Assembly: GCA_963727825.1 (NCBI GenBank)
Contig: CAVSHO010000007.1
Coordinates: forward strand, 128,001-192,000
From: Ignavibacteriota bacterium
GTDB lineage: Bacteria > Bacteroidota > Ignavibacteria > UBA10030
Direction: 5' to 3'
Length of the DNA: 64,000 bases
The notes beneath the pieces are model-generated. The model searched no databases. It was not told the DNA's origin and saw only the letters and a list, made by a program, of their open reading frames with translations. The position numbers were made by a program, and so were the translations under genes. Positions 1,107 to 23,448 of the stretch are shown here, one piece after another (position 1 is the first letter of the stretch; every line of letters starts with the position of its first letter).

Positions 1107-4100
1107 ATGTCAAGGATCATTTCACTATTTCTACTTATTGTAACTATCATTTTCTGTGCGGAAGCTTCAAGCGTTAGTATATTTGGTCCAAAACGTTATG
1201 ATCGCACAACCGGCAAACCCAATACTTGTCAAGATAACTTTGTTTTAAAGCAAGGAGCGACAGCTCCATTCACGCTCACAGTCACCAATGGAGCGCCAAA
1301 CGGTTCAAATCGTGTTTCAAGCGGAACGGTTACAATCAATGGAGTTGTGATTATCAAGCAATCTGATCTCAACCAACAAGTGGGATCACTTCAGCGCGTG
1401 ATATCACTTAATGCGAATAATACTATCGAGGTAGATCTCTCAAGTACGCCCGGCTCATATTTAACAATCGAAATTACTGGACAAGCTGGAACAACAATTC
1501 CGATTCTTAGTATTACTCAGCCCACTGATGGATTTATTACGAAAACATCTCCGGTGTCAGTCGTCGGTACTGTGAGCGGCACTACTCCATTAATTGTAAA
1601 AGCTAATGATTTTCTAATGACTGTCAATACAAACGGTGTTGTCAGTGGACAAGTAGCATTGGTGGAAGGAAGTAATAACATTAGTTTCATTGCAACCGAT
1701 GCTACAGGAGGCACCGCGACTGTTGTTCGGAAAGTAATCTTAGATTCACGTCCACCGACTTTGATAGTTAGTACTCCTGTTGATAATTTCACTACCAACC
1801 AGACATCAGTGAGCGTCAGTGGGACAGTAAAAGATTCGACATCAGTGACTGTGAAGGTAAATGGAACAAGTGTTACGGCTTCCAATAGCTCATTCAGTAG
1901 TACTCTTGCACTTGTTGAAGGTATTAATACAATTACGATTGTTGCGACTGATGCAACAGGAAATCAAACGACAGTCGCTCGCACAGTGAGGAGAGATAGT
2001 CAGCCGCCGGTACTTGCTATAACACAACCGATAGATAGATTGATTACAAACCAATTAACAGTTCCAGTTACCGGCACTGTAACGGACCTGCCCACCAACA
2101 GTCAGGCGGGTGCGAGCCAAGTGCAAGTCACCGTCGATGGAAAACAGGTATCTGTCGATCATCATAATGCGTTCTATGCACTTATAACACTTGCAGAAGG
2201 CCAGAATACGATAACGGTTGTGGCAACCGATGCTGCAGGGAATTCCACGAAACTTACTCGAATGGTAACACGGGATGATGTTTCGCCAACTCTAACAGTA
2301 AGCGAACCTGCCGATGGTCTAGTGACCAAGAGTAATTCCATCAGTGTGAAAGGAACTGTCCACGACCAGACAACCGTGACTGTGCAAGTCAATGGTGTTG
2401 TATTTCCGGTTGATCAAACAGGAGCGTTCAGCGGCACTTTGTCCTTGAAGGAAGGCAAGAATATACTACAGATCGTTGCCACAGATGCAGCGAAGAACTC
2501 CACAACTATTATACGTACAGTCATTCGTGATACAACACCGCCGGATATTGATGTCTACACACCATGGAATAATATTACGACGGGTGATAGCGTTGTTATA
2601 GTAAGCGGTAAAGTCACTGATTGTACTGCAACAGTCGTAAATATTTCAATCAATGGTGGAAAGAGTAATCCTGTTCCTCTGCTATGTTTTGGTTTTTTTA
2701 TTCAGAAAGTATCGTTGAGCGGTGGAACGAATGTCATTACAATCACAGCTACAGATGCTGCAGGCAATAGTTCAATCGTAACACGAACCATCAATCGAAA
2801 AGGCACAACTCTCAAGCTAGTTGTTTCAGAGCCAGTGGATGAAACGATTACACGTGCTGGTTCTATTCTTGTAAAAGGCACAGCAACGGGAACGGGTGCA
2901 ATTACGCTGAAAGTTAATGGAGGTGTTATTAGTGTCTCATCTGATGGATCTTTCAGTACTTCGGTGAATCTTGCAGAGGGGACGAATCTCATCACCACAA
3001 CTGCTACGGATGCTTCAAATACAACCTTGACCGTCACTCGACTTGTCATCAAAGACACCACACCCCCGGTATTGATTGTTGATAAACCGGTTGATGGATT
3101 CCTTACGAAGGACGCAGCCGTTGCCGTGAGTGGCACAGTGAGCGACTCAACAAGCGTAAACGTGTTGGTGAATGGTCATGCAGTCTCCGTTGGAATAGAT
3201 GGATCCTTCAATTATTCATTATCCACTGTCGAAGGGACGAATGTCATTACCATTGTTGCAACAGATACATTGGGTAATGCAACGACCATAACGCGATGGA
3301 TCAGAAAAGACACAACGCCACCAACCTTGACTATAACGACACCCAATAATGATGCGATTACCTCTGTCGACTCGATTTTTGTAGCGGGAAGTGTGAAAGA
3401 TTCTTCGGCCGTAACACTAAAAATAAATGAGGTGTCGATCAATGTTAATGCAGATGGAACATTCAGCGGTTATGCTCCCCTTTCATCCGAAGGGGCAAAT
3501 GAGTTGTATGTTATTGCCATAGACGCATTGGGAAATGTAACCACGAGCTCACGTTTGGTAATAATGGATACACAGCCGCCAATCGTCAATCTTACATCAC
3601 CAATCGATAGTCTTATTACTAATCTCCAATCTATAACAGTAAGTGGAACAGTCACAGACTCCACTACTGTAACTCTAACGATAAATGGGAATAGTCCCCA
3701 AGGGATAAATGTATCCCTTGGTGTAGGCGGAGTTTTCAGTTATCAGTTGCCAGTTGCAGAAGGATGGAATACAATTATTATTGTAGCGACTGATGCAGCA
3801 GGAAATAAAACAACCATTACTCGAACAGTTAATAAAGACACACAACCTCCCGTTGTCAATCTTACATCGCCAATTGATAGCCTTATTACTAATATCCAAT
3901 CCATCACAGTCAATGGGACTGTAACAGATTTAACAACGATATCTTTGACCGTTAATGGGAATCCGGTAACCACAGGAAATAGCGGCACCTTTAGTGCGCA
4001 GATATCATTAAATGAGGGTTCAAATACCTTTACTATCATTGCGACAGATGCGGCGGGTAATTCCACGACAATTTCAAGAGGGGCGGTCCTCGATTCGCAA

Positions 4101-7100
4101 GCGCCAACCGTAAATTTACTTTTACCTGTTGATTCAACGATAACAAATCTCTCGTCGATTACTGTTAGCGGAAAAATAACAGACGCTTCCTTTTCATCGC
4201 TTACAATTGCAGGAAATGTTGTTACCGTGAGTACGGACGGATACTTCTCAACAACTGTAAGTCTTAATGAGGGATTAAATTCTGTTGTATTGACGGCTAT
4301 AGACAAAGCCGGAAACACAACAACAATTTCGAGATCAATAATCCGGGATTCACAAGCGCCAGTTGTGAATATCCAGTCTCCGATCGATAGTCTCATTACA
4401 AAACTTCAATCTATTACGGTGAGCGGAACTGTTAGCGATTCGACTGAAGTGCAGTTGACTGTGAAGGTCGGGAGTGGAACTCCCTCCCAGCTTGAAGTTG
4501 GAAGCGATGGAACATTCAGGACCGTTATTAATCTGGTTGAAGGAAAAAATATTATCACAATCGGAGCTTCCGATGCAGCGGGAAATAAAACAACAGTTTC
4601 AAGATTAGTTATCCGGGATACACAAGCTCCAATCGTCAATCTCACTTCACCAATCGATAGTCTCATTACCAATCTCCAATTGGTCACTGTGAGCGGAACA
4701 GTTTTAGACTCCACCTCGGCAACTCTGAAGATTAATGGGAACAATGTGCCCGTTGGTGTAAGCGGAGTTTTCAGTTATCAATCGTCAATAATTGAAGGAA
4801 AGGATACGATAACGGTTGTTGCAACGGATGCTGCTGGAAATACTACTACAATTTCGAGATTGGTAATTCGAGATTCGCAATCCCCAATTATTAATCTCAC
4901 CTCACCAATCGACAATCTTATTACAAATCTCCCATCAGTCACTTTTAGTGGGACAGTAAAAGATTCGTCGGCAGTAATGTTGACTGTGACAGTCGGGAGT
5001 GGAACTCCCTCCCAACTTAAATTAGGAAGTGATGGAACATTCAGCACGCAAGTATCATTAGTCGAAGGCACTAATACTATATTAATCACAGCCACAGACA
5101 CGGCAGGAAACTCTACAACCATCATTCGTAATGTGCGACTAGATTCAACACCGCCGAAGATGGTTCTTACATCACCAATTGATAGTTCAGTGACGAATAA
5201 AACAAAAATAGTAATAAGCGGATCGGTCGTGGATTCAAGCTCTGTTACTTTTACCGTCAATGGTATTGCATTTCCGATTAGCACCAATGGGTTATTTTCG
5301 GATACGCTTTCGATCAATGAAGGGAAAAATTATTTTAGTATCGTTGCAACCGACAAAGTTGGGAATCAAACTACTATCAAACGTACTGTTATCCGTGATA
5401 CACAGGCGCCGACGATCTTGATTGCTTCTCCAACAGCGAATGCTACTACAACTGACAGCTTAATCTCGGTGATTGGTAGCATTATTGATTCGACACAAAT
5501 ATCCATAACTGTTAACGGTGCTATACAAACAACAGGTCTCAATGGAGGGTTTACATTACCGTTATTCCTTTCCAACGGTAATAATACCGTCTCTGTTGTT
5601 GCGACTGATCAAGCCGGCAACACATCGACGCTTATTCGAACGATAACAAAAGTTTCAATGCCGCCAGATCCTATAACAGTTGCTCCAAAGATTGATGCCA
5701 CAATTGCAACTAACATTTGCGATGCTACAGAATTTTTATACACAGGTTCGAACACGATACAAAAAGGGATGACTCCAGGTTCAATTAGTAAAGCTCAAGT
5801 TTCTGTTATACGAGGAAAAGTGCTAGATGGAAATAAACAAGCTCTAAAAGGAGTTAATATAACTGTATTGAATCATCCCGAATATGGAAGCACTATAAGC
5901 AGAGATGATGGCATGTATGATCTTGCTGTTAACGGCGGATCATACATAACGATTAATTATGATCACGTTGGATATTTGTCTGCACAGCGACAGGTTGATG
6001 CCCGATTGCAATTATATAGACAAGCAGATGACGTTATACTTTTACGTATGGACACTGTGGTGCAGCATGTTGATTTAACAACGCCCCAAATTGTGCAGGG
6101 AAGACCAGTAAGTGATTCATTAGGAACTCGCAGACCGGCTTTGTTTATTCGCCCCGGGACATCTGCGAATTTGGTTTTCAATAAATATACATATAGAGTA
6201 TTAAATGCTTGTTCTATCCCGGCAAATCGTTGGTGTTCTAATACTATTATTCAACCGTCCGTAACCATTCCGACGCTGGTAGATAGTCTCGTCCCTACTA
6301 AATCAATTTCTGTCCGAATGATGGAGTACACCGCAAATGCAAACGGAGAGATCGCAATTCCCGGTGTATTGCCAGCCAGCGTGGCATATACGTTTGCTTT
6401 TGAATTGAGTGCTGATGAAATGCTCAGTGCGGGGGCAAGAGATATTCGATTTAATCAACCTGCAGTATTTTATCTAGAAAATGTTTTGGGCTTCCCGGTT
6501 GGATTGACAGTTCCTTTTGGTTGGTATGATAGACAAAATGGATATTGGAATACATCGCCAAATGGAAAAGTTATTAAAATCATAGACACCGTTGGAGGCA
6601 TTGCATCTATAGATTACAACGGAGATGGCATCGCTGAATTATCAGATACGTTGTTGGTTAAGGGAATTTCATTACTTGAGCAACAATACCTTGCCTTAAA
6701 TTATAAAAAAGGTCAATCGCTCTGGCGATGTGAAATAACGCATCTTGGCACATTCGCTGCAGGATTCACAATGGTTGGGCCATCGAATGCGCAAGAGCCG
6801 CAAAATCCACTGCCGGATCGCTATGCAAAAGTTGATCGAGATAATATCGTAGCCGGTTCAGTGATTGGAGTTCAGAATCAGACGCTCAGCGAATCTACAC
6901 CAATTGTCAATACTCCAATAACCATGAACTATAAAAGCGATCGTGTCTTTGGAAGAAGAGAAGCATATTGTCTCGATATTCCTCTTACAGGAACAACAAT
7001 TCCGCAGGGAATGTCGAAGGTAACATTAGAGATAGAGATTGTTGGAAGAAAATATGATTCCACATTTACGCCCCAACCAAATCTTACATATCACTTCGAA

Positions 7101-10100
7101 TGGGATGGAAAAGATGCGTATGGCAGAAGAGTTCAAGGTCAGCAAAATATTTTAACTATCATCACATATTCTTATCCCTCTCAATTTGCTTTGCCACCAG
7201 ATTATAATAATTGTTTTGCGACGCCTTCTGGTCAGATAATAACGCAATATGTACCGGGCTGTAAAATGATTAGCAAGACCCAAATTTGGGAAGGTAAAAT
7301 TGGCGCGTTTGACTTTCTATCACTTGGCATTGGAGGCTGGAGCTTAAGTCTGCACCATGGTTACGATTGTTTAGGCCGTATTCTTTACAAAGGTGACGGA
7401 ACGGTAAGCAGCGCAAATGTAATGGATAATGTTATCAATACCGTTATGGGAAACAAAGGAGATATAAATAATTGGTGCGCTGATTATGGCTTAGATGGGA
7501 CACTTGCGACACAAACTATGGATTGGAATGTATTAAGCCTTGCCTTTGGTAAAAACGATGAATTGTATTATAATGTCGCAAATAATTATATCCGAAAAAT
7601 AGATACCGCGGGAATAATAAATACTATAGGCGGACTTATAGGTAATGGTACTATATCGTATGACACAAGCACAGGTAAGTTAGCAAATTGCTGCGCTTTC
7701 AATTATAACGCTGCTAACGCAGCAATTAATGTTGGACCTGATGGTTGTGTTTATTTTGTAGATTATTTACTGGATGTTATTTGGAAAATAACTCAATATG
7801 GAGAACGGATTCGATATGCAGGTGTTATAGGAGCAAATTCTTCTAGTGGAGATGGTGGCACTGCCACTCAAGCCTCCTTTAATAGTCCATCATCTATTGC
7901 ATTTGGAAAAGATGGATGTTGTTATATCTTTGAAGGAAATAATAGCCGAATCAGAAAGATTTCTCCGGATGGTATTGTTACAACTGTTGCAGGCACAGGC
8001 GTGAGCGGTTATAGCGGCGATGGAGGACCAGCAACAAATGCCAAGATCCAAGGAGGGATGGTATATTCTAATCCTAGTTATATTAATGGTAATGGAACTA
8101 CCGACATGGTAGTTGGAGACGATGGCTCTATTTATTTTGCTGAAGGTGCGGGATGTCATATTAGAAAAATTACACCGGATGGCATTATACATACAATTGC
8201 TGGTACTGGAGACCAGTACAATACCGGCGATGGCGGACCTGCGGTGAATGCTCGTGTCTGGTACCCGATGAGTCTTTCATTGGGAAAAGATAGAACTCTA
8301 TTCTTATCGACAAGAAATTCAATTAGAGCCATAGCAACAGATGGATATATTAAAACTATTGTGGGCGGCGGAAATAATATATGGTTAGATAATTGTCCCG
8401 CAACCGCATATCAATTGACTTCCCAGCCCGCTATTGCAATGGGGCAAGATAATAATCTTTACGCAGCTGAAGCTTGGACTTCACCCAAAGCCTATTCGCT
8501 TAGCCACATTTTTAAAGTCACACCACCGCTTCCCGGTATTACGCTGAGCGAAATCCTTGTTGCTTCAGAAGATGGATCAGAGCAATATGTCTTTACATAC
8601 TCCGGCAGGCATCTGTGCACACTTGATGCGCTGACCGGCGTTGTAAAATATAGCTTTGGCTATGACTCGACTTATAAACTTATTACTATCACAGATGTTG
8701 ATAGTCTTGTAACACACATTGAGCGAGATTCCAATGATAATGCGACAGCAATTATATCGCCCTATGGTGTCCGCACAGAATTAAATCTCGATTCACTTGG
8801 ATACTTATTACACGCCGTAAATCCAGCAAGCGAGTCTAATCAATTTACATATACATCCGGCGGTTTGATGACGAGCAAGACTGATGCCCGCGGTAATACA
8901 TACAATTATTCATACGACTCTCTTGGTTATTTGACAATGGATTTAGATCCGGTTGGCGGTTATACAACGCTTAGCCGTGTGTACGACTCAACAGGATATA
9001 CCATAACCTCGTTGACAGCGATGGGGAAGAAAACAACATATCGTGTGGACCATTTGCGCGACGGCTCGCGTGTGCTCACCAACACCGATGCGAACGGATT
9101 AAAAACGATTACTACGATTGGAACCGATGGCTCCTCGACAACAACTACACCTGATGGTATGAGCACACCTGACCAGCAAAAACCCGATCCGCGTTACGGC
9201 ATGCAGTCGCCTTTGCAAAATGTTACTGTAAACACACCGGGCGGCTTGCAATCCAATGTAAATCAGTATAGAACAATAACGCAGATGACAGGCAACGCGG
9301 TAACGGGTTTGCAGGATAGCATTATGGTCAATGGTAAACCATTCAAGACACGATGGGATGGCAACCAAAGGATGTTGACAAAGATCAGCGCTGAAGGACG
9401 ACAAACCTTTTCCTTCTATGATGTAAAAGGAAGAGTAATTAAGGATTCTATTCCAGGACTTTTAGCAACAACTCATAAATATGACAGCAAAGGAAGAAAG
9501 ATAGAAGACAACCAGGGTGGAAGAAAAACGACATACGCATACGACTCACTTGGTAGACAAGCAAAGGTGACAGATCCTTATGGAAGAATTACTCAGTTCT
9601 TCTATGACTTGTCAGATAGGTTGGTGAGGACTGTTCTACCCGACTCATCGGAAGTATCATTCACATACGACAAGAATGGGAATATGCTTTCGTTGACTCC
9701 GCCATCTAAACCAGAACATACTTTCGATTATTCAAAAGTGGATTTGGAAACACTATACACACCTCCGTTTGCTGGAGATAGTGCAAGGGCGACTGCAAAA
9801 ATCTACAATTTTGATAGGGAGATTACTTGCATTGCTCGACCTGATAGCTTGAATATGAATTTCTTTTATGGCGGAAAAGGTTCATTAGCTGGCCAACCCA
9901 AAAAGATTTCCTATGATCGAGGAACAATGACCTTCCTTTACGATACGATTAAAGCGTTAGTTACGGGAGTAATTTCTCCAAATGGAGATTCACTGCTTTA
10001 TCAATATGATGGTCAATTGCCAAAGTATGTTCGCTGGACTGGTTCTGTCAATGGAAATATAAAAGTCAGATATAACAACGATATGAAAGTTTTAGCAGAG

Positions 10101-11647
10101 ACTATCAACAATAAAGACAGCATTAATTTTGTTTATGACAAAGATGGATTGCTTACCAATGCAGGAGCGCTCAAGTTAAAATCGAGTACAGCAAACAACT
10201 TGTTACTAAGCGATACTTTAGGAAATGTAGTGACCAACTATATCTACAATTCTCTTGGAGAAATAGCAAGTCAGCAATCGCTTTTCGGCTCGGCAGTTTT
10301 ATATCAAGTGAATTATACCAGAGATAGTTTGGGAAGAGTTTCTGAAAAGGCTGAAACAATTCAAGGCATAGCAACAAAATATGATTATGTATATGATGTC
10401 AAAGGACAACTTTTGCAGGTATCGAAAAACGATACGATTGTTTCCACGTACACTTACGACCCAAATGGCAATCGTATTGCACACATGACCCCAATTTCTG
10501 CTGACAGTGGAACATATGATGTACAAGATAGATTACTCACATACTCATCGACTCAATATCTATATTCTCAAAATGGCGACCTAAGACAGAAGATAGTGGG
10601 CACCCGCCAAACAGACGGCGGGCAAGCAGACACGACCCATTACGACTATGATGCTATGGGGAATCTTCTTTCCGTGGTTTTGCCAACGGGTACACGTATT
10701 GATTACATTACAGATGGAGCCGGTCGTCGTATTATAAGAAAAACTAATGGACAAATTACAAATCGATGGTTATACTCTGATGAATTGAGAATCAGTGGAG
10801 AAGTCGATAGCGTTGGAAACGTTGTGAGTCACTTCGTCTATGCGACAAAACAAAATGTGCCGGAGTATGTTTTGAAAGGTAGTATTGCTTATAGAGTTGT
10901 GACAGATCAGCTTGGAAGTGTAAGGCAGGTGATCAATTCAGCTACAGGCCAGGTTGTTCAGCAAATGGATTATGATGAGTTTGGAAACGTAACCAACTCC
11001 AGCGGTCAACAAATTGTGCCAATGGGGTTTGCTGGAGGGATATATGATGCTCAAACGGGACTAACAAGGTTTGGGGCAAGAGATTATGAAGCCAGTGTTG
11101 GAAGATGGATGGTAAAGGATCCGATATTATTTGCTTCAAACTCAATGAATCATTATGGTTATGCAGGAAATAATCCCATAAATCTTTTTGATATAAGTGG
11201 TAATTCTGATCTTTGGGGGAAGCTATTGCTGCTTTTACATTTGCGGCATCAACGACAAGCCTGATAAATGATATTTGGGAATACGTTAATTCAAAGGGAA
11301 GCGATATTGGTGCAACAATAGGGCTTTATGCTGATACATGGGGTATGGGTGCAAGTGTGATTAATTTTGCTAAAGCGGCAAGAGAATACGAAAATGTCGG
11401 TGATGTTAGAACTGATCCTTTAACAGCTCTTATTGAAAAACTTGGCGGAAAAATTAATGTCTGTAATTTTACAGAAACAATGGTATCAGCTGCGATGACA
11501 GCTCAGTTTGCACATACCATGGATCTCATGAGTAAGGGTTCTAACTTGAGAGCAGCGGTTTGGACATTATCTGCTCTTGCCACTCTTCAAGCCGGTATAA
11601 ATTGCTGGATCGTTGCTGAAATGAATTTAGGAAAGCAAAAAAAATAA
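1107..11647 (+). CDS. Giant secreted teneurin-like Rhs/YD protein: signal peptide, 16 Ig-like repeats, carboxypeptidase-regulatory-like/FN-plug region, NHL propeller, YD shell, Rhs core, C-terminal payload (payload separated by a 1-nt frameshift at about 11215)
   Basis: ORF 1107-11264; 16 A(T/I/S)DxxGN-type units; teneurin-like motifs WDGKDAYGRRVQG and GGWSLSLHH; NHL repeats (GDGGPA); core RFGARDY...GRWMVKDP...NNPINLFDISG; one extra G at 11215-11219 fuses ORF 11213-11647. Confidence 0.88.
2087..2110. repeat. 24-bp in-frame hairpin+tetranucleotide insertion (adds LPTNSQAG)
   Basis: Minus strand CCCGCC-N8-GGTGGG-CAGG; removal restores VTDASQV, matching sister repeats. Confidence 0.75.
3695..3709. 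repeat. 15-bp in-frame hairpin+TAAA insertion
   Basis: TCCC-caa-GGGA-TAAA; removal gives INGNSVSLGV, like sister repeat INGNNVPVGV. Confidence 0.6.
4466..4493. repeat. RAYT-type REP copy inside the coding sequence
   Basis: GGTCGGGAGTGGAACTCCCTCCCAGCTT closely matches intergenic REP GGTCGGGAGTTAGAACTCCCTCCAAACTT (14496-14524). Confidence 0.75.
4992..5018. repeat. Second RAYT-type REP copy inside the coding sequence
   Basis: GTCGGGAGTGGAACTCCCTCCCAACTT; read as VGSGTPSQL. Confidence 0.75.
10603..10626. repeat. 24-bp in-frame hairpin+CAAG insertion in the YD shell
   Basis: CCCGCC-aaacagac-GGCGGG-CAAG; removal restores KIVGTDTTHY. Confidence 0.8.
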
Positions 11648-11668
11648 ACATCAAAAGGAGTTAAAATT

Positions 11669-12160
11669 ATGTTCATTATAATTAATGGCATTTTTTGTAT
11701 TGCATTGATGGTATTTTTGAGTCGTTCGTCAAACAAGCCGGCACGAATTGATGGAACAAGCGGTAATATTATTCTCTATTGTGGTGCCCGTTATATAGTT
11801 TTTGCTTTTATTGGATTTTTATGTGCTTTTGATATTCTATACATATTCCATCCTATTCTCGGAGAAATTACTTTGAATTCTATAATAATTTTCCTTCCTG
11901 TGGGTGCATGTATTTATGGTGGATTAAAAATGTTTCTTATGGCGAGGCGCTATGAAATTGAACTGACCCACGATGCAATTATTGAGAAGCAAATAATAAG
12001 GAAACCAGTCAAAATTGAATGGGAAAAAGTAAAGAAAGTTCTTAATATCAACCGTGGTGTCGAAATATATAGTATTGAGGGAACAAAAATTAGAATTCCT
12101 CAAACGATGGATGGATATTTAACTCTTCTTAAAGTAATAGAAGAAAAGCATCCTAGATAA
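11669..12160 (+). CDS. Membrane protein, probable immunity protein
   Basis: 3 hydrophobic segments plus soluble C-terminal domain; AGGAG SD; 21 nt after the Rhs payload stop. Confidence 0.6.
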   Translation: MFIIINGIFCIALMVFLSRSSNKPARIDGTSGNIILYCGARYIVFAFIGFLCAFDILYIFHPILGEITLNSIIIFLPVGACIYGGLKMFLMARRYEIELTHDAIIEKQIIRKPVKIEWEKVKKVLNINRGVEIYSIEGTKIRIPQTMDGYLTLLKVIEEKHPR

Positions 12161-12525: not shown

Positions 12526-13674
12526 ATGCTCCTTGTACCATACAAAATGGAGACAACGTTCACGCGAATCCCGTTTACGAATGCGGCAATTATCGTTGTG
12601 ACGTCATTGATTTTCTTCCTTCCCTTTACAGGTGCTATTACATTTAATGATCTTGAACCTTTTGTGTTAAAAGACTGGGACTTCAGCCAACTGATAGGGA
12701 GTGCATTTTTGCATGGAGGTTTCTTCCATCTTCTTGGCAATATGCTTTTTTTATGGATTTTTGGTAACGCTATCTGTGGAGCTGTAGGAAATATAGCTTA
12801 TCCATTTCTCTATTTGTTTCTGGCGATTATTTCCGGGTCAACTTATCTCATAATGAGTAGTCAACCAATGATTGGTGCAAGCGGCGCGATCAATGGTATT
12901 GTCGGTATGACACTTGTTTTTTTTCCGAAGAACCGTATCCATACCTTTTATTGGTTTTTTATTCCAATAATATGGCTTATCAAAACTGGAAAGTTTAAAA
13001 CGAAAACCAGTTGGATGATTTTGTACTGGCTTATCTTTGATATCTTTGGCGCCATGGCTGGTGGTGACGGCGTTGCGCACTGGGCACATCTCGGTGGATT
13101 TATGGGCGGAGTGATAGTTGGATTAATTTTATTACAATTCCATGTTATCGTTACGCATAGCCCTTCTTTATTGGATGTGTTATCAGGAAAGGCATCAGAT
13201 CCAGATGCGTTCAGCGATATGGATTTAGAGACTCTTGCCACTTCTCATAGAACACAGAATCCATCGAATGCATTGACGCCGGTCGAACAACAAAAATCTG
13301 CTGCCATAACAATGCAACCTTCCCAACCACAAGAGACACCTACTGTACCAAATATTCATCTCTCGCGATGTGTAGGTGAGGGAAGCCCTGTGACATGCTA
13401 CATTGTTAATAAAGGCGCAACTATAAAAAGCCCACAGCTGAAAGTACCGCAGGGAGTAACGGCGCTCATGAATTCAAAAATTGCACTGCGTACACGCGAA
13501 TCCGGATGGATTCGATTTTCCACTGATGATCAGAGTTCAATTGATAGCATAGAGTTCATTCTGGGATATAAGAACTCATTAAATGAGTTTCATAAAATGC
13601 GCTTTCGATGTATCCCATCGGCAAATACATTGACCATGATTTCGTCGACCGAGCCGCAAGAAAAAGAATTATAG
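12526..13674 (+). CDS. Rhomboid-family intramembrane serine protease with C-terminal soluble extension
   Basis: FLHGGFFHLLGNM, catalytic GASGA, HWAHLGG. Confidence 0.9.
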   Translation: MLLVPYKMETTFTRIPFTNAAIIVVTSLIFFLPFTGAITFNDLEPFVLKDWDFSQLIGSAFLHGGFFHLLGNMLFLWIFGNAICGAVGNIAYPFLYLFLAIISGSTYLIMSSQPMIGASGAINGIVGMTLVFFPKNRIHTFYWFFIPIIWLIKTGKFKTKTSWMILYWLIFDIFGAMAGGDGVAHWAHLGGFMGGVIVGLILLQFHVIVTHSPSLLDVLSGKASDPDAFSDMDLETLATSHRTQNPSNALTPVEQQKSAAITMQPSQPQETPTVPNIHLSRCVGEGSPVTCYIVNKGATIKSPQLKVPQGVTALMNSKIALRTRESGWIRFSTDDQSSIDSIEFILGYKNSLNEFHKMRFRCIPSANTLTMISSTEPQEKEL

Positions 13675-13799
13675 TAGCCAAGCTTGGGAATGAGAACCCT
13701 CAATTGTGAAGAAGTCGAACTCCTGAACGGAGATAAGAGCGGGACAAGTGCAAGAAATTATGAAGGTGAACAAGGTTTATTTAATGTCCAAACAGATCC

Positions 13800-13857
13800 A
13801 AGTTGTGAAGGAGTTCCGCCATAAGATAAGGCATGGCGGATAAATGTACTCCTGAAT
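13800..13857. repeat. REP upstream of RAYT with a 30-bp loop insertion at 13815-13844
   Basis: AAGTTGTGAAGGAGT[TCCGCCATAAGATAAGGCATGGCGGATAAA]TGTACTCCTGAA; a degenerate copy lies at about 13702-13728. Confidence 0.85.
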
Positions 13858-13880
13858 TAAAATTGTTAAATAATTATACG

Positions 13881-14420
13881 ATGAGCCGATGGAAAATTAT
13901 ATCTGGCGTCAATCTCTTTTTTATCACAACAACTATTGTTGAATGGAGGAGCGTGTTTGTTGCTATCCCATTGTTTGAGACAATAATGGAAAGTCTAAAG
14001 TTTTGTCTTGCAAATAAAGAACTGCATCTACATGGTTATGTTATTATGCCCAATCATGCCCATTATATTGTTTCTAGTGACCCGCCGGAAAAGTTATCCG
14101 ATATTATGAGAGATTTTAACAGGTTCACATCTCAATGCATTACTGACGTTTTAGAAGAAATGCATAGGGATGAACTGCTTGAGATTTTTCACAAAGCTGC
14201 GATGGACGAAGGTCGTGGAAATCGATATAAAGTGTGGCAGGAGGGATTTCATCCTATTGCGATTGATACAGGAGCGTTTTTTCAACAGAAACTAGACTAT
14301 TTGCACGAGAATCCCGTACGGAAGGGATTTGTTGAGAAACCGGAATACTGGTGTTATTCGAGTGCAAGGAATTATCTTTTTGATGATCATTCAATTATCC
14401 CTGTTGAGTGTCTCGAATGA
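13881..14420 (+). mobile_element. REP-associated tyrosine transposase (RAYT, HUH)
   Basis: FFITTT, GYVIMPNHAH (HUH), WQEGFH, KLDYLHENPVRKG, YWCYSSA; REPs on both sides; likely start is ATG 13881. Confidence 0.9.
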
Positions 14421-14424
14421 ATTG

Positions 14425-14526
14425 GGTCGGGAGTGCAACACCCCTAAGTTGTGAAGGAGTTGCACTCCTGAACTAAAAAGTGAAACAAATAGAATGGTCG
14501 GGAGTTAGAACTCCCTCCAAACTTAG
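14425..14526. repeat. REP fragment plus uninterrupted REPIN downstream of RAYT
   Basis: AAGTTGTGAAGGAGTTGCACTCCTGAAC ... GGTCGGGAGTTAGAACTCCCTCCAAACTT (two hairpins in inverted orientation). Confidence 0.85.
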
Positions 14527-14591
14527 TTTATTGAGAACTGAAATTTAAATATCGCTGTACTATATCAAAAGTACACACTTAGGGAGTGTTT

Positions 14592-16569
14592 ATGAAAAAG
14601 CGAGGCATAATTATATCTCTTGTCGTATCTTTTACTTTCATTGCGTATGGTCAGAAATCAGAACCATTTAAATCTCCCGAAATAAAAGCGCAGCAAGCAG
14701 ACACACTCAGTTCCAGTTTAGAGACTCCGGTTCCATTGCCGGATACAATTGCAATTAATAATCATGTTTTACCGCAAGGCGCTAAGGATACAACCACGCT
14801 GAGCTTCCGCGATACGGATTTAAGGGATATCTTCCGTGCACTAGCGGCAAAACATAACTTAAACATCTTCATAGATAATACAATCAACAAACATTCTACA
14901 ATCTCACTCTCCAATGTGCAAGTGTACAATGCAATCAAATTTATTTGCCAGCAGAATGATCTTAAGTTGAGCTTAGATGGATGTATCTTTAAAATTTTGC
15001 CTCAACCTCCTCCACCAAAAGCAGAACCGCTGCCGGCAAAAGTGCCATGGGTCTATTATGGTAATAATTTACTATCCGTAAAACTGAAGAATGACGATCT
15101 TGAAACATTTGTGCTGGAAATAGAGAGGAAGATGCGGCAAGAACATTCTTATCCTTAGCGGTACATCGGGAAATTTAAACGGCACATTAAACGATATCGA
15201 TTTTGATATAGGCTTTACGCAATTATTGAACAATAACGGTTTTGCTGTCCAGAAAAAAAATGGTGTATATATTGTCAGTCGATTGGAATATTTTGTCGGC
15301 CAGCAAACTCAAGGCGGAAGTCAAAAAGCAGGGCCGTATTGGATCAGTGTGCATGATTCATTAGTCACTGTTGACGTTACCAATGCGCCATTAGACCGTG
15401 TGCTGAGCGATATAGGCCGTCAGCTGAACAAAGATATGGTATTCTACAGTCAGGTCACTGGTAATATTACTGCACGGGCAACAGACATCCCGCTGGAGAA
15501 TGCCTTCAATCTCTTGCTCAGAAATTCAAACTTTACTTATCGTATTTCAGATGGAATGTATTTTATCGGTGAAAAAGCGAATAAGACGATGACCGCTACA
15601 AAGCTGCTTCGTCTAAAGTATCTGCGCGCAGAAAAAGTATTGGAATCCATACCTCAATCGATTACATCAATGGCTGTTTTAAAAGTTATCAAAGAACATA
15701 ATGGAATTGTCGTTGTGGGACCGAACGATATAATCACTCAGGCGGAAGAATATCTTCAAGCTATCGACAAGCCAGTCGCACAGGTGCTCATCGAAGCAAT
15801 TGTCGTCGATTATGACCGTACGAAAGGACTCGATCTCGGAGTAACTGCGGGGTACCTCGGTTCAAAAGATACAACTACATCATTCTCTCGCACCGATGCG
15901 CTTATTCCGGGAGTCAATATGATGTTCTCAGGTCCTACACTTAATAACGCTTTGAGCGCTATCGGTGCGACAAACCTCGGCAAGCTTCCAGCTGACTTCT
16001 TTTTAAATTTGAAGGCGATGGAACAAAGGGGAATTGCCAATGTAAAATCACGCCCCTTACTTGCAACACTCAACGGCTATCCGGCAATGCTCAGCATTGG
16101 TACGACGTTCTATTTCGAACTCACGACTACGACTCCTTTTTCGCAAAACCAAAACCAGACATACCTATCCACCAGCCAACAATTTACAACAGTTGAAGCT
16201 GACACAAAACTCGAGATTACTCCTTATGTCGGTTCTGACGGGCAGATCACTGTCGAAATAAAGCCCGACTTCAAAACACCGGTTGGTCAACCGATAAATG
16301 GAATTCCTCCTAACATCAACAGGCGTGCTATGTCTTCCACACTTGTGATGAGAGAAGGGGAGACAATCGTCTTGGGCGGTATGGTGCAGGAGACAGAATC
16401 CGAATCGCGCACGCAGGTGCCTATACTTGGTTCAATTCCACTGCTCGGATATTTGTTTTCTTCCACAAGTCATAGCACTAATAAATCGGAATTGGTAATT
16501 TACATCACACCGCATATTTCGTATGGTGAAGCGTTCCATAATGTGAGTCTGCCGGACCATGAAGAATGA
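14592..16569 (+). CDS. Secretin (GspD/PilQ family), split by one frameshift near 15130-15155
   Basis: N-terminal LSFRDTDLRDIFR domain; QVLIEAIVVD; GETIVLGG, VPILGSIPLLGYLF, ELVIYITP. Confidence 0.88.
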
Positions 16570-16600
16570 GTATCTGATTTTTTTTTCGATAGAGGAGATA

Positions 16601-16766
16601 AATTGCCGCGACGTTTTCCCGTAGTAATGGAGTTTGCCAACGTCGTGGGTACATAAACGGAAACAATCTTTGACTTTAGCCATAGATAAAAGCGATATTC
16701 AATAGTTGCGGCTAAAGCCGTAAAGGATTAATTATTTCTTCCACACGCTGAAGCTCATGGCAATGA
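16601..16766. repeat. Degenerate BIME/REPIN-like palindrome cluster
   Basis: GCGACGTT...AACGTCGT, CTTTAGCC / GCGGCTAAAGCCG, terminal TTGCC...GGCAA inverted ends. Confidence 0.5.
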
Positions 16767-16808
16767 ATATATTTTAAGTATACATTTTTTGCAAACTGTA
16801 TAGCATCG

Positions 16809-18203
16809 ATGAATATTTCCACTCTTCAAATAAGCCATATCAACTTCCGTCAATTAGCCGGTGCTAACCGTGTACTCGGTGTCGATCTTACGGAAAACTG
16901 CGTTCGTGTTGTTGAAGTGGAAGAACGTATACTACCACTTCGGAAATCGCAATCAAGATTCACAGTTCGCAATCATTTCATTCTAGAATATGATCCGGCA
17001 GCGGAGTGGCTAAAACGAGCAGATCTCCTGAAACAAAAATTAACCGGACTTGGAATTCGTGCGCGCTATGCAGCTACAAGCATCCGTTCTTTAGGCGTCA
17101 AAGTTGTTGAAACTACAATTCCATCCGGCATACACGCTTTTGATGAATGGATAACCGAGAATCAGGAAAAACTACTGCGAATTCCGTTAAACTCTGGAAG
17201 TATAACACATTGTGTAGAAATATTGGAACGGTCTGATTCAGGAACACGCGTAGAAATTACGTTTGTCCGGAGGGAAGAGATTGGACGCTACCAGTCGTTC
17301 TTTCGCACTGTAGGACTTGAGTTGATCACGCTCGGAGCAGGAACCCGCGATGCAAGCAATGTCATAACAACTGGAAAGAATTTCGGAGGGGAGAAAGAAA
17401 AATTCCTTTTTATTGAAGATGTTTCAGTCAACGTAACAGAATTTAAACAGGGGAGAAGGAATCGATCATATCAGACGGCGACACCATTCCAACAGACACA
17501 ATCGGAAGAAGCTTCAGTTTTTGTGTCTTGTGAAAAAGTCATAACGACAAATCTTGCCGATATACAAATCATTCAACCGCTTGGATTATCTCCAGAGTAT
17601 TGCCTCTCTGTCGGGTTAGCATTAAAAGCTCTGAATTCTGATCTTAGTCCGACTAATCTTTTGCCGGCAGAAGAGACAAACCGTATCGAAGTGAATTTCC
17701 ATAAATCTTTTTTCCAGAGGGCAATATTATTTTTAGGTGCTGTTTTGATTGTTCTGCTCATCATCCCATCTGCTCTGGAAGGCTATTTAGATTGGCGATC
17801 TAATAAACTAGACGAGCAATTGTCGGCAAACGTCAGTTCCTACGCTGAGCTAAAACTTCTGGAAACCCAAACACGCGATCTTGAAAAACAGCTCGGTGAA
17901 GCCAACACTTCGGTTCGTTCTTCCCATACTGCAAAGTTATTGCATAACATTGCAAGCGCAAGTCCGGAAGGGCTGTGGTTATACAAAATCAAATTAGATG
18001 CAGAAACCAAGGGAACATCAAAGTTGTCTCTTTTCGGATATACACTTAAAAGTGAAAAAGTCACTGACTATTTGAAGAATCTCAACGGTCTCGGTTATGA
18101 AGCAAATTTAATTCGATCTGGAAGTCCTCAACAAAATGAAACGTTGATTCCATTGCGAAAGGACGCCGTATCATTTGAAATAGCAATACAACTAAGGAAT
18201 TAA
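16809..18203 (+). CDS. PilM/PilN (GspL)-like fusion protein
   Basis: Actin-like N-terminus VLGVDLTENCVRVVEV, TNLLP motif, single TM, coiled coil, SPEGLWL periplasmic domain. Confidence 0.7.
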   Translation: MNISTLQISHINFRQLAGANRVLGVDLTENCVRVVEVEERILPLRKSQSRFTVRNHFILEYDPAAEWLKRADLLKQKLTGLGIRARYAATSIRSLGVKVVETTIPSGIHAFDEWITENQEKLLRIPLNSGSITHCVEILERSDSGTRVEITFVRREEIGRYQSFFRTVGLELITLGAGTRDASNVITTGKNFGGEKEKFLFIEDVSVNVTEFKQGRRNRSYQTATPFQQTQSEEASVFVSCEKVITTNLADIQIIQPLGLSPEYCLSVGLALKALNSDLSPTNLLPAEETNRIEVNFHKSFFQRAILFLGAVLIVLLIIPSALEGYLDWRSNKLDEQLSANVSSYAELKLLETQTRDLEKQLGEANTSVRSSHTAKLLHNIASASPEGLWLYKIKLDAETKGTSKLSLFGYTLKSEKVTDYLKNLNGLGYEANLIRSGSPQQNETLIPLRKDAVSFEIAIQLRN

Positions 18204-18204
18204 A

Positions 18205-18741
18205 TTGACTGGCAAACGAAAATATCAAATAGGAATAACAGCGATAGGAGTATTGTTTATCTACCTCCTTTTCACAGAAGTTTCAGGTCGATGGAGTGAA
18301 GCATATCGTTCTTATCGAGAGTTCTCAGCGAAAGAGGAGAGCGTCCTTAATCCCGATGAACTTGCGCAACGTACTATGGACTTACGTGTAAAGAAAAGAA
18401 TTCTTACAACACAAATCACACGTGCAAACGAGGGATTTGAGCAAAGCCAAATAGGAGTTGTGCGCTTAATTCAAGCTCGAGCAAAAGAGAAGAATATGTA
18501 TTTGAGGATGATCACACCGTTGGAAACGCGTCCTGTCGGCCAGATGATCGAAATTGGATTTACTCTGGAGCTTTTAGGATCGTATCATCGATTAGGAAGC
18601 TATATTTCTTCTCTCGAGACCGGACCTATACCAATAAAAATAGTTAATGTTGAGGCGGTGAATCAACAGCCCGGTTCTACAGTGCTGACTATTTCTATTC
18701 AGGGGAAAGCGTTTATTCTGTCTAAGAATGTTTTGCAATGA
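18205..18741 (+). CDS. PilO/GspM-like protein
   Basis: N-terminal TM, coiled coil, LELLGSYHRLGSYISSLE motif. Confidence 0.65.
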   Translation: MTGKRKYQIGITAIGVLFIYLLFTEVSGRWSEAYRSYREFSAKEESVLNPDELAQRTMDLRVKKRILTTQITRANEGFEQSQIGVVRLIQARAKEKNMYLRMITPLETRPVGQMIEIGFTLELLGSYHRLGSYISSLETGPIPIKIVNVEAVNQQPGSTVLTISIQGKAFILSKNVLQ

Positions 18742-19193
18742 AGCCGAATAAATACATATTGCGATTGCTGGTGGTTGCGCTTTTGATTGTCTGGGGTCTC
18801 GTTGTATATGAAGTTATATCGGCAATTTATTTTGGCGAAGATAAGGAAACCAGCAATGCCGATAACCTGATAAAAAATAAAGGAAAAAGTGCAGAAACTT
18901 TCCTGTATGATGAAAATGTCAAAGATCCATTTCTATACTACGCCTCCAAAACTGATACAATGAAACGTGTCAGCACACCTAAACTGATCGCTCCGGTCTG
19001 GAATCCACCACCATTCCGCTTAAAAGGAATAATTGATGCGCGATCCGGCAAGATGGTGATTCTGGAAGATGGATCAGGTGAAACATTTTTCTTGCAGCGG
19101 GGAGATACCTTGCATGGAGTACATATTCTTGCCATAGAATCAAATCGTGTTCAATACGAATTTGAGAAAAAGAAATCGGATTGGCAGCTGTAA
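18738..19193 (+). CDS. PilP/GspC-like protein
   Basis: TM, KDPF, FRLKGII, LQRGDTLHGVHILAIES. Confidence 0.6.
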   Translation: MKPNKYILRLLVVALLIVWGLVVYEVISAIYFGEDKETSNADNLIKNKGKSAETFLYDENVKDPFLYYASKTDTMKRVSTPKLIAPVWNPPPFRLKGIIDARSGKMVILEDGSGETFFLQRGDTLHGVHILAIESNRVQYEFEKKKSDWQL

Positions 19194-19490: not shown

Positions 19491-19562
19491 GGCGCCGTAC
19501 CCAAGTGGTAAGGGAGAGGTCTGCAAAACCTTTATGCAGCGGTTCGAATCCGCTCGGCGCCT
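19491..19562 (+). tRNA. tRNA-Cys (GCA)
   Basis: GGCGCCG/CGGCGCC acceptor stem, CTGCAAA anticodon loop, GGTTCGAATCC T-arm. Confidence 0.96.
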
Positions 19563-19565
19563 CTC

Positions 19566-19716: not shown

Positions 19717-20175
19717 CTGCAATAAAATCAAAGATTTTCCTTTCGTTTTCAAAATAATCTTACTATTGCAAGCGGAAGTGCAAGCTAAGGAGTGTATCTT
19801 TTGCTTGCTTCCATCTATCTTTTCAAACCGTCGAGAAGCCATTGCCGGTATATTCAATTAACTATGAAAATCTTCATGCTGAGGTGAACAAGATTTCTGT
19901 ATCTTTGAACTGAGAAAGCAGAGTTTAATGAAAATATGAGTGGTTGCCCCTTTTTTTATCGCTTGAACTTCAAAGAAATAAAGTATAGTCTTCTGGCGTT
20001 CGAAGAAGTGTTTACCAGAGCTCTATCTTTTTCAGCGGAACAATTCGAGAAGAAGATTAATTGAGCGGCAGCTTGGAAGTTAGCGATGCAACAGCTTCTG
20101 CATTTATTAGACTGTGTTTTAAAATAGAAAATTGAAATAGCAAATAAATCGTCAATCTGAGTGGAGATAAAGATA

Positions 20176-21780
20176 ATGTATAATTCTACTATTCAATACA
20201 AATCATTATTTGTACGATTCCGAGTTTTCTTTCTTCTTTTTCTTTTATCCTCTCTATTGCCTTCGCTAACCTTTTCTGCCACATACGGAATTGCCGGTTC
20301 AGTAAAGGACGCTTCAGGCAATGCGATTGCAGGAGTAGTAATGAATGGACTTCCTGGCAACCCGATTACTGATAGCAGTGGCAACTATGGCGCCTTTCTA
20401 ACTCTCGGTTGGTCTGGTACAGTGACACCGACATTGACCGGATACACGTTCACTCCTGTGAGTCGAACATATACAACTATTAGCATCACATATCCACATG
20501 AGGATTACATAGCTCAAGGTACATTAGCAATTGCCGGTTCAGTAAAGGATGCTTTAGGCAATGCGATTGCAGGAGTAGTAATGAATGGACTTCCTGGCAA
20601 TCCGGCTACAGATAACAGTGGCAACTACGGAGTCTATCTAGGCCCTGGTTGGTCTGGCATAGTGACACCGACATTGACCGGATACACGTTCACTCCTGTG
20701 AGTCGAACGTATAGTAATCTTCAAGCGAGTATTGGCAGTCAGAATTACACGGCTCAAGGTACGTTAGCAATTGCCGGTTCAGTAAAGGATGCTTTAGGCA
20801 ATGCGATTGCAGGAGTAGTAATGAATGGACTTCCTGGCAATCCGGCTACAGATAACAGTGGCAACTACGGAGTCTATCTAGGCCCTGGTTGGTCTGGCAT
20901 AGTGACACCGACATTGACCGGATACACGTTCACTCCTGTGAGTCGAACGTATAGTAATCTTCAAGCGAGTATTGGCAGTCAGAATTACACGGCTCAAGGT
21001 ACGTTAGCAATTGCCGGTTCAGTAAAGGATGCTTTAGGCAATGCGATTGTAGGAGTAGTAATGAATGGACTTCCTGGCAATCCGGCTACAGATAACAACG
21101 GCAACTACGGAGTCTATCTAGGCCCTGGTTGGTCTGGCACAGTGACACCGACATTAACCGGATACACGTTCACTCCTGTGAGTCGAACGTATAGTAATCT
21201 TCAAGCAAGCATTGGCAGTCAGAATTACACGGCTCAAGGTACGTTAGCAATTGCCGGTTCAGTAAAGGATGCTTTAGGCAATGCGATTGCAGGAGTAGTA
21301 ATGAATGGACTTCCTGGCAATCCGGCTACAGATAACAGTGGCAACTACGGAGTCTATCTAGGCCCTGGTTGGTCTGGCATAGTGACACCGACATTGACCG
21401 GATACACGTTCACTCCTGTGAGTCGAACGTATAGTAATCTTCAAGCGAGTATTGGCAGCCAGAATTACACAACTCAAGGTAAGGTTGGCGTTGCTAATAC
21501 CGATAAAACTTTGCCATCGGAATTTGAACTAGACCAGAATTATCCGAATCCATTTAATCCGTCAACAAATATTTCTTTTAGTCTTCCATCTAAATCATTT
21601 GTCTCGCTGAAGATATTTGATGCTTTGGGAAGAGAAGTGTCTACTATCCTGTCAGTTGAGTTGCTTGCTGGGAAATACTCTCGGCAATGGAATGCTGCAG
21701 GTCTACCAAGTGGAATATATTTCTATCGTTTACAGGCTGGTTCTTTCAATGAAACGAAGAAAATGATTTTGCTGAAGTGA
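20176..21780 (+). CDS. T9SS-secreted protein with five 80-aa Ig/carboxypeptidase-regulatory-like repeats
   Basis: Signal peptide; C-terminal sorting domain FELDQNYPNPFNPST...LPSGIYFYRL...KKMILLK. Confidence 0.9.
   Translation: MYNSTIQYKSLFVRFRVFFLLFLLSSLLPSLTFSATYGIAGSVKDASGNAIAGVVMNGLPGNPITDSSGNYGAFLTLGWSGTVTPTLTGYTFTPVSRTYTTISITYPHEDYIAQGTLAIAGSVKDALGNAIAGVVMNGLPGNPATDNSGNYGVYLGPGWSGIVTPTLTGYTFTPVSRTYSNLQASIGSQNYTAQGTLAIAGSVKDALGNAIAGVVMNGLPGNPATDNSGNYGVYLGPGWSGIVTPTLTGYTFTPVSRTYSNLQASIGSQNYTAQGTLAIAGSVKDALGNAIVGVVMNGLPGNPATDNNGNYGVYLGPGWSGTVTPTLTGYTFTPVSRTYSNLQASIGSQNYTAQGTLAIAGSVKDALGNAIAGVVMNGLPGNPATDNSGNYGVYLGPGWSGIVTPTLTGYTFTPVSRTYSNLQASIGSQNYTTQGKVGVANTDKTLPSEFELDQNYPNPFNPSTNISFSLPSKSFVSLKIFDALGREVSTILSVELLAGKYSRQWNAAGLPSGIYFYRLQAGSFNETKKMILLK
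20289..21480 (+). repeat. Five tandem 240-bp repeats (units 2-5 nearly identical)
   Basis: AATTGCCGGTTCAGTAAAGGA at 20289, 20529, 20769, 21009 and 21249. Confidence 0.95.
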
Positions 21781-21809
21781 GATAAATGAAATTTTAATAG
21801 TTGTTCAAG

Positions 21810-23438: not shown

Positions 23439-23448
23439 AAGGATTACG

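Follow-up and report, generated by a model that had tools for sequence, protein, structure and literature searches.

A teneurin-like protein on a 16-repeat stalk in an Ignavibacteriota bacterium, with a predicted C-terminal toxin domain and a putative immunity gene

Does a giant open reading frame (ORF) in the genome of an uncultured Ignavibacteriota bacterium encode a toxin-bearing relative of the animal teneurins, and if so, why does its frame stop just before the toxin? The question is raised by a stretch of 64,000 nucleotides (contig CAVSHO010000007.1 of assembly GCA_963727825.1, positions 128,001 to 192,000 of the forward strand), which we refer to as the window and whose coordinates we use throughout. 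In the window ORF list and its translation, a single plus-strand ORF at 1107..11264 encodes 3385 aa. The original prediction, made from the sequence without database searches, had described a bacterial teneurin-like protein (TLP) on a stalk of immunoglobulin (Ig)-like domains, with a C-terminal payload and an adjacent gene for a membrane protein. We conclude that the locus probably holds one gene, split here by a single-base indel, that would encode a TLP of ~3513 aa belonging to the polymorphic-toxin class.

Relationship to teneurins

The proposed kinship with teneurins held when residues 1501-3364 were searched against the PDB with phmmer. Entries named 'Teneurin-like protein' (9IFO/9PT5) matched at E=0 with 1101 bits, and animal teneurins at E 1e-55 to 3e-82, whereas Rhs effectors of the type VI secretion system (T6SS) and BC cocoons of Tc toxins were far weaker, at E 1e-11 to 5e-29. 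The entries 9IFO and 9PT5 are the Bacillus inaquosorum TLP, BiTLP (Raoelijaona et al., Nat Commun 2026, PMC13018210). In that paper, TLPs are defined by the joint presence of hidden Markov model (HMM) matches to the FN-plug, NHL and YD-shell domains, and the corresponding trio PF24329, PF25021 and PF25023 all scored above curated cut-offs in the window protein. Upstream of the FN-plug, the TTR and TIP region is also present: residues 1524-1695 and 1732-2116 align with BiTLP 359-532 and 537-933, with the boundaries of TIP itself not delimited; TIP is reported in 96% of TLPs (Raoelijaona et al., 2026). Further downstream, the alignment of the shell runs from 754 to 1862 of the query against BiTLP 1057-2140. 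By sequence homology, the window protein is a bacterial TLP.

The residues expected of an Rhs autoprotease are retained. In BiTLP, the catalytic aspartyl autoprotease residues are R2103, D2116 and D2140, with the motif PxxxxDPxG (Raoelijaona et al., 2026), and these align without gaps with R3325, D3338 and D3362 of the window protein, in which the two Asp residues are 24 residues apart. The match to the Rhs-associated core (Rhs_assc_core, TIGR03696, NCBIfam) covers aa 3289-3365 at E 8.7e-18, with ...NNPINLFDISG at its C-terminal end, so that the second autoprotease motif reads DISG, the Pro of DPxG being replaced. This departure at ...PINLFDISG had been remarked on in the original prediction; it is real, yet it is a trait of the clade, since in the 9 of 17 closest relatives in which the core motif could be located the Pro is absent from 7. 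BiTLP is cut after L2144 and at an upstream site, between G723 and S724, and its Cys719 forms a disulfide to the C-terminal domain (CTD) (Raoelijaona et al., 2026). By analogy with the first of these cuts, the CTD of the window protein would start after N3366. The position of Cys719 is occupied by Asn1913, and a BiTLP-type disulfide to the CTD is therefore not expected.

The inventory of the N-terminal half and of the superfold given earlier (signal peptide, 16 Ig-like repeats, teneurin motifs, NHL propeller, YD shell and Rhs core) proved correct in Pfam and NCBIfam scans, the signal peptide being judged by eye. The N-terminus resembles a Sec signal peptide with an AxA site, and the complete N-termini of relatives, likewise compared by eye, repeat the n-h-c pattern and end in ..FAQ. 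Following it is a module whose motif is common to P0007, P0008, P0011, P0019, P0020, P0034, P0055 and P0071 and to which the Pfam scan assigned no family. In the stalk, PF09136 (Glucodextran_B) matched in 16 stretches at E 2e-234 and NF033510 (Ca_tandemer, NCBIfam) in 12, with PF19077 (Big_13) and Cadherin-like matches in addition; an ATDxxGN-type motif occurs 14 times at a spacing of 85-90 aa with two double gaps, which gives 16 units.

Comparison with the known systems places the protein closest to BiTLP, with which it shares the domain order TTR, TIP/FN-plug, NHL, YD-shell and Rhs core, the R/D/D autoprotease residues, the upstream G-S site, a hydrophobic-leaning CTD of ~15 kDa, a gene directly downstream and the lack of a known delivery machinery. 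Unlike BiTLP, it comes from a diderm host of the Ignavibacteria/Bacteroidota lineage, carries 16 Glucodextran_B-type Ig repeats in its stalk, has DISG and Asn at the two positions described above, and ends in a CTD unrelated in sequence, next to a gene for a polytopic membrane protein. Among the TLPs surveyed in 2026, those of Gram-negative bacteria (Myxococcota, Pseudomonadota and others) have the same superfold, polymorphic CTDs and a downstream immunity gene, but they are predicted lipoproteins processed by signal peptidase II (SPII), whereas the window TLP and proteins closely related to it lack a Cys where cleavage is predicted and by eye appear to be of the signal peptidase I (SPI) type. 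Metazoan teneurins (PDB 6FB3, 6FAY, 8R50) share the FN-plug/NHL/YD-shell superfold; unlike them, the window TLP has no type II transmembrane helix, EGF repeats, ABD or Tox-GHH in the Pfam scan, and it keeps the autoprotease motif that is described as absent in mammalian teneurins (Raoelijaona et al., 2026). With T6SS Rhs effectors and the BC cocoons of Tc toxins (8H8A Rhs-family, Tse5 8CP6, Tre23 7PQ5, Tse15 8UY4) the locus shares a YD cocoon, an aspartyl autoprotease, a polymorphic tip and orphan cassettes; what sets the window TLP apart is its NHL propeller, FN-plug and Sec signal peptide and the absence of PAAR/VgrG, and T6SS-type PAAR/VgrG Pfam families were found neither in the TLP nor in the scanned ORFs of the window.

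Relatives are numerous. A word-index search returned 2053 of 8000 scored candidates at E<=1e-3, the named top matches being proteins of Bacteroidota metagenome-assembled genomes (MAGs), and a single genome scan gave seven TLP loci. The closest are L002 (Ignavibacteriota MAG, 71% identity to the window TLP), L001 ('Bacteroidota' MAG, 66%), L004 (Ignavibacteriae MAG, 63%) and L003 ('Bacteroidota' MAG, 61%), and distant TLPs at 27-34% are found in MAGs of Thiotrichaceae, Desulfocapsa and Bradymonadaceae.

The frame break between shell and C-terminal domain

The main frame stops at 11264, where it ends in ...DISGNSDLWGKLLLLLHLRHQRQA (...NNPINLFDISGNSDLWGKLLLLLHLRHQRQA in a second rendering). The Ala/Gly-rich payload uses the -1 frame, where 145 codons are open between 11210 and 11647, and the two frames meet within a run of five G (G5) at 11215-11219. 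The original prediction had let the Rhs core run directly into a payload of about 145 aa: the payload sequence is present, and it is in frame in relatives, but in the window it is out of frame. Searches found no ribosome-binding site (RBS) or promoter-like site belonging to the payload ORF itself, and, around the gene ends, neither a sigma-70-like promoter nor a noteworthy intrinsic terminator.

Two relatives bear directly on this break. P0004, from another assembly, is 98.4% identical to the window TLP over 2188 aa, its own N-terminus being cut inside the stalk, and reads through the junction in one frame (...DISGNSDLWGEAIAAF..., also rendered ...DISGNSDLWGEAIAAFTF...). When its tail was placed on the window by tblastn, it matched frame +3 up to 11222 and frame +2 from 11216, and its last 143 residues were identical to the -1 frame of the window at 143 of 143 positions. 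P0002, a homologue of the payload with 44% identity (E 1e-18), also continues in frame from an Rhs core. Proteins of the same 90% cluster from other assemblies have their breaks elsewhere in the gene: P0127 ends in ...GWSLSLTMVTIV, and P0126 is also broken. Within the window, frame breaks occur at ~1 per 10 kb, with at least five others in conserved genes of the 64 kb, including the essential atpG; about one break is therefore predicted in the 10.5-kb TLP gene. Because P0004 and P0002 are in frame, cluster mates are broken at other points and conserved window genes are frame-split, we consider the break at the G5 run most likely to be an assembly indel or error. On these sequence comparisons, the intact gene would encode ~3513 aa with an encapsulated CTD of ~147 aa, and since the break most likely arose in assembly, reading the payload through from the shell, as was originally done, is most likely biologically right.

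A real frameshift would instead leave a disarmed TLP, in which the shell ends 20 aa past the core motif, the toxin domain is untranslated or decaying and the immunity gene is kept. The window sequence does read G5, and the public annotation gives the protein 3385 aa; moreover, inactive remnants are frequent in Rhs loci, and a decayed immunity copy is found at the L002 locus. We nevertheless regard this explanation as improbable: the payload frame is open for all its 145 codons and, in its identity to the in-frame P0004, shows no decay, the rate of breaks in conserved genes such as atpG predicts one in a gene of this length, and the same gene is broken at other points in other assemblies. As a device for setting the ratio of empty to toxin-loaded shells, programmed -1 ribosomal frameshifting or transcriptional slippage in the G run is scarcely credible. 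A homopolymer break placed just where the cleavage site gives way to the toxin would suit such control well, but the junction is in frame in the two relatives, no X_XXY_YYZ heptamer was seen by eye in the zero frame, and the housekeeping genes of the window carry scattered frame breaks as well.

An assembly error of this kind has consequences for database use. The public protein record (3385 aa) is most likely shortened by the break, public protein calls on the contig appear to be truncated in the same way, and the seeming split between shell and toxin should be treated with caution, as an assembly artefact.

The other frame-split genes of the window are as follows: atpG (57799-58700) lies in three frame pieces; atpH (55624-56176) is without its N-terminal part; a gene for a type II secretion system (T2SS) E/PilB-like ATPase (T2SSE/PilB-like; 58781-60104) is in two pieces, split at profile position 142/144; a FecR_C-STN-secretin gene (14583-16569) is in two frames, with one ORF of 683 aa as its counterpart in L001; and a methylase gene (39439-41707) is probably frame-split too. 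In the comparison of window 10896-11644 with P0004, the payload is identical at 143/143 positions and the adjoining Rhs core at 101/109. Our sequence comparisons suggest that the CTD, perhaps together with the immunity gene, is conserved or exchanged as a unit.

The C-terminal domain, its neighbouring gene and locus dynamics

The payload had been called unrecognised, and profile searches bear this out: no family was assigned in Pfam or NCBIfam, and the profile of its family (A4) gave 0 matches in the PDB at E<=10, solved pore-formers and the BiTLP CTD included. In the ESM Atlas the best score was an uninformative 0.78, and a word-index search limited to proteins of 255-2000 aa, a range beyond which the giant fused forms lie, returned nothing. 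Against 1.84 billion representatives phmmer gave two matches, of which only P0002 is true; the other, P0003, is a eukaryote-like LRR/GPCR protein that matches spuriously through its repeats and was rejected. An iterative HMM over 128 CTD entries (88 delimited CTDs, 33 last-200-aa tails in which the motif was not found, six locus CTDs and P0002) converged on six members: the seeds window/P0004 and P0002, followed by the L002 CTD (E 4e-14), the CTD of an orphan cassette in L001 (E 3.5e-8), P0006 (E 1.2e-7; hhalign P 1.6e-4) and P0005 (E 2.8e-5; hhalign P 1.3e-3), the E-values being those at first inclusion. Two CTDs of L004, alike by eye (..AATVW..), were not recruited by the HMM and were left out. 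The tails of the 120 listed relatives differ, as expected from the C-terminal polymorphism for which a comparison of homologues had been proposed.

Members of the family are 136-156 aa long and contain 37-45% Ala/Gly/Ser/Thr. Their grand average of hydropathy (GRAVY) is 0.11-0.55, against -0.32 +/- 0.49 for 87 other TLP CTDs, and a 19-aa window above 1.6 is found only in the L002, L001 orphan and P0006 members. For the window payload itself the GRAVY is 0.19, the best 19-aa Kyte-Doolittle value is 1.33 (residues 117-135) and 24 residues are charged, so that the term 'hydrophobic' in the original prediction was overstated. AlphaFold2, run on a two-row alignment, drew five helices at a confidence (pLDDT) of 44. 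Taken together, the payload appears to represent a new small CTD family, predicted with low confidence to be all-helical and mildly hydrophobic.

Pore-forming colicins with Cai/Cei-type immunity, CdiA-CT of EC93 and T6SS effectors of the Tse4/Ssp6 type are membrane-depolarising toxins whose immunity proteins are integral to the membrane. These pairs serve here as a working analogy only, that of a small helical toxin with a polytopic immunity protein of little loop, and the family profile showed no sequence relation to them in the PDB. In BiTLP, the CTD is hydrophobic and permeabilises E. coli if directed to the periplasm (Raoelijaona et al., 2026). In each case of known context (window, L002 and L001 orphan), the ORF following the family member encodes a membrane protein. 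From composition, these neighbours and the analogy with the BiTLP CTD, the payload may act on membranes. It is possible, though we think it unlikely, that the payload has no membrane action and is a soluble helical effector, either enzymatic or binding some target in the periplasm or cytoplasm, with the neighbour of three transmembrane (TM) segments protecting in another way or being unrelated. The window copy has no transmembrane-grade segment and many charged residues, the PDB search found neither a solved pore-former nor the BiTLP CTD to resemble it, and published TLP CTDs, typically ~15 kDa and polymorphic with an immunity gene downstream, are mostly enzymes (Raoelijaona et al., 2026). Set against this, the family is more hydrophobic than most TLP CTDs, with the L002 and L001 orphan members passing the 1.6 mark; the known neighbours are all membrane proteins with, by eye, very short external loops; and the 11 invariant columns of A4 show no obvious polar motif that looks catalytic.

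The downstream ORF begins 21 nt past the payload stop, and the three TM segments ascribed to it were recovered as three hydrophobic segments within aa 1-92 of its 163 aa. By the positive-inside rule, applied by eye, its Lys/Arg-rich tail would be cytoplasmic and its external loops minimal. In a search of 5.8 billion proteins, its one homologue was P0125 (51% identity). A decayed copy of the gene, with in-frame stops, is present at L002 17747-17980, 1.8 kb downstream of the L002 TLP; it is 33% identical to the window protein over 97 aa (E 2.6e-6), and since the L002 TLP has a CTD of the payload family, this second co-occurrence is unlikely to be due to chance. Because the adjoining gene lies within 21 nt and has an RBS, has one homologue and has left a decayed copy beside the L002 TLP, we read its product as a putative immunity protein that would probably work within the membrane. 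Its AlphaFold2 model (pLDDT 55) was too poor for a fold search, and a complex prediction with the payload scored 0.00, a value obtained without controls. In the ESM Atlas, the protein lies near DUF6560 by language-model resemblance (score 0.96, 201/256 shared features), in clusters of which 38-53% of members carry that domain. DUF6560 (PF20197) was rejected as an assignment, as the Pfam model gave no match even at E<=1; no mention of DUF6560 was found in the literature searched.

The relatives show how such loci change. L001 is the orthologous locus, with identities to the window of 94.5% for the rhomboid protein, 87% for the secretin, 77% for the PilN-like and 89% for the PilO-like protein. 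Its main TLP, 66% identical, has another CTD, and the ORF after it encodes a membrane protein that includes a Peptidase_S26 domain. Downstream of that TLP, an orphan cassette (L001 17467-20284) holds a 574-aa Rhs C-terminal fragment with a payload-family CTD and then a multi-TM ORF; the shell part of this orphan is 81% identical to the window TLP and 52% to L001's own. L004 likewise has an orphan core-CTD fragment (7578-8566) downstream of its main TLP, followed by a TM ORF. Such displaced modules, or orphan cassettes, are known from Rhs loci and from loci of contact-dependent growth inhibition (CDI). The locus behaves as a classic Rhs-type polymorphic toxin locus, in which CTD/immunity modules are swapped and displaced orphan cassettes are kept by relatives. 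In the immunity position of L001 (15899-16954), the multi-TM protein is fused to the signal-peptidase domain (Peptidase_S26, E 8e-22); this ORF is an unusual candidate immunity protein.

We infer surface display, cleavage, toxicity, a membrane target, immunity and an outer-membrane route for the window TLP as follows. The protein would be exported by Sec through its N-terminal signal peptide and would then be displayed on the stalk of 16 Ig domains, while the TTR/TIP/FN-plug/NHL/YD-shell superfold, recognised by homology, would enclose the last ~147 aa as in the BiTLP structure. The Rhs aspartyl protease (R3325, D3338, D3362) could free the CTD inside the shell, with a cut between G1917 and S1918 upstream, the residues for both being in place. 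After a release step, the CTD may attack the membrane of a neighbouring bacterium, and the co-transcribed 3-TM protein (11669-12160) would protect the producer, probably within the membrane. To the view that the stalk and the NHL propeller are the functional parts and that adhesion or kin recognition, not killing, is the main role, we give little probability. It finds some support in 16 adhesin-type repeats with similarity to Ca_tandemer and in a role in cell-to-cell communication that the 2026 paper leaves open for TLPs (Raoelijaona et al., 2026), but the autoprotease residues, the polymorphic CTD, the adjacent gene for a small membrane protein and the orphan cassettes in relatives are hallmarks of toxin delivery.

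Several points weigh against the reading of one toxin gene with its immunity partner. The raw window sequence itself carries the break. The window payload is only mildly hydrophobic, with no 19-aa window above 1.6, and its AlphaFold2 model, at pLDDT 44, is unreliable and too poor for fold comparison. The ORFs beside other payload-family CTDs are not detectably homologous to the window immunity protein, co-conservation at the sequence level consists of P0125 and one decayed copy, and P0002 and P0125 are on contigs of separate sizes, 16,387 and 8,081 bp.

Table 1. Features of the TLP gene and its downstream neighbour in the window
Feature	Position	Strand	Evidence or remark
Predicted Sec-type signal peptide	1107..1166	+	MSRIISLFLLIVTIIFCAEA, cut before SS; AxA site by eye, without canonical lipobox
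Conserved N-terminal module	1170..1511	+	Motif ..V.IFGP.R[FY].R.TG.P.. shared by relatives
Stalk, 16 Ig-like repeats of ~85-90 aa each	1512..5636	+	PF09136, PF19077, NF033510, motif periodicity
TTR domain, teneurin-type	5790..6038 (aa 1562-1644)	+	PF25020 TTR_TEN1-4, E 9.7e-20; aligns with BiTLP 359-532
Region homologous to BiTLP 537-933 (TIP + FN-plug in that paper's scheme)	6039..7181	+	PDB alignment domain 2, i-E 5.6e-95
FN-plug_TEN1-4	aa 1956-2025	+	PF24329, E 2.8e-9
Conserved site G1917-S1918, equivalent to BiTLP G723-S724	6855-6860	+	Residue alignment
NHL beta-propeller	7428..8516 (end approximate)	+	PF25021 TEN_NHL from aa 2108, E 7.6e-17, two stretches; aligns with BiTLP NHL
YD/Rhs shell	8559..11132 (aa 2485-3342)	+	PF25023 TEN_YD-shell, E 1.4e-33, profile 11-870 of 909
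Rhs-associated core with aspartyl autoprotease residues R3325, D3338, D3362	10971..11204	+	TIGR03696; predicted cut after N3366
G5 run, point of frame break	11215..11219	+	Frame comparison, tblastn; relatives read W-G-E
Predicted C-terminal toxin domain (payload), ~147 aa if read through	11205..11647	+	Predicted helical, Ala/Gly/Ser/Thr-rich
Putative immunity gene, 163 aa	11669..12160	+	Three hydrophobic helices, then Lys/Arg-rich C-terminal domain of ~70 aa; AAGGAG 8 nt before ATG

Export route, novelty and genomic surroundings

The original prediction had left the export route unexplained, having seen no CTD of the type IX secretion system (T9SS) and no PAAR/VgrG signature. The Pfam scan agrees, with no Por_Secre_tail, PAAR or VgrG in the window TLP at E<=0.01, and the 2026 paper says likewise for the whole class, for which it gives no export or delivery route as known (Raoelijaona et al., 2026). 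The organism has T9SS cargo, yet Por_Secre_tail is absent from both the TLP and the payload. The protein in question, encoded at 20161-21780 of the window, carries Por_Secre_tail, the T9SS sorting domain, at E 4.9e-11.

A secretin with FecR_C and STN domains and PilN/PilO-like genes lie 2.4-6.6 kb downstream of the window TLP. It is conceivable, but very doubtful, that type-IV-pilus/T2SS-like machinery around the locus could serve as the export or display route of this clade; the cluster was not seen at the TLP loci of L002 and L003, and, the window and L001 being close relatives (77-94% identity, flanking genes), the synteny amounts to one independent observation. If true, such a route would supply the export path that is stated as not known for the class (Raoelijaona et al., 2026). 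As to the surroundings themselves, the window locus sits inside a type-IV-pilus/T2SS-like cluster (12526-19193), with rhomboid, secretin and PilN/PilO-like genes downstream, and in L001 the pilus cluster occupies 3345-6125 and 20507-26419, with pilin, A24 prepilin peptidase and PilB ATPase directly upstream of the TLP.

Already described are the TLP class as such, the encapsulation of polymorphic CTDs, a hydrophobic CTD that permeabilises membranes, and immunity genes lying downstream (Raoelijaona et al., 2026). What is new is the lineage (Ignavibacteria/Bacteroidota), the small CTD family and the 3-TM neighbour with its single relative. Bacterial TLPs had not been characterised before 2026, and the survey of that year, based on 139 genomes from six phyla, described them as rare; a term search of its text and 11 readable supplements found no TLP of Bacteroidota or Ignavibacteria, and no entry that joined teneurin with Bacteroidota was among the literature matches listed. 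The window locus and its relatives, with the number of candidates given above and Ignavibacteriota/Bacteroidota MAGs as the closest genomes, point to a class that is abundant in uncultured lineages. What these relatives add are Ig stalks of great length, signal peptides of the SPI type, orphan cassettes of toxin and immunity genes, and one or more CTD/immunity pairs not yet characterised. With them, the ancestors of animal teneurins span more taxa and more mechanisms, and a new small candidate toxin family comes into view.

Other features of the window complete the picture. An IS200-type Y1 transposase gene (204-641, E 4.6e-29) lies upstream of the TLP, and a weaker Y1_Tnp-like ORF (13833-14420, E 4e-7), without a counterpart in L001, lies downstream of the rhomboid gene, so that two Y1 transposase-like ORFs bracket the TLP-immunity-rhomboid segment. 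Further along, 34866-45045 is a likely defence island comprising a PLD-SNF2 helicase (1114 aa), a PD-(D/E)XK protein, DUF4391, pieces of an N6_Mtase/Eco57I methylase and a Fic-domain protein. The only Rfam/ARAGORN matches in the window are a tRNA-Cys(GCA) at 19491-19563 and a tRNA-Leu(TAA) at 22253-22339.

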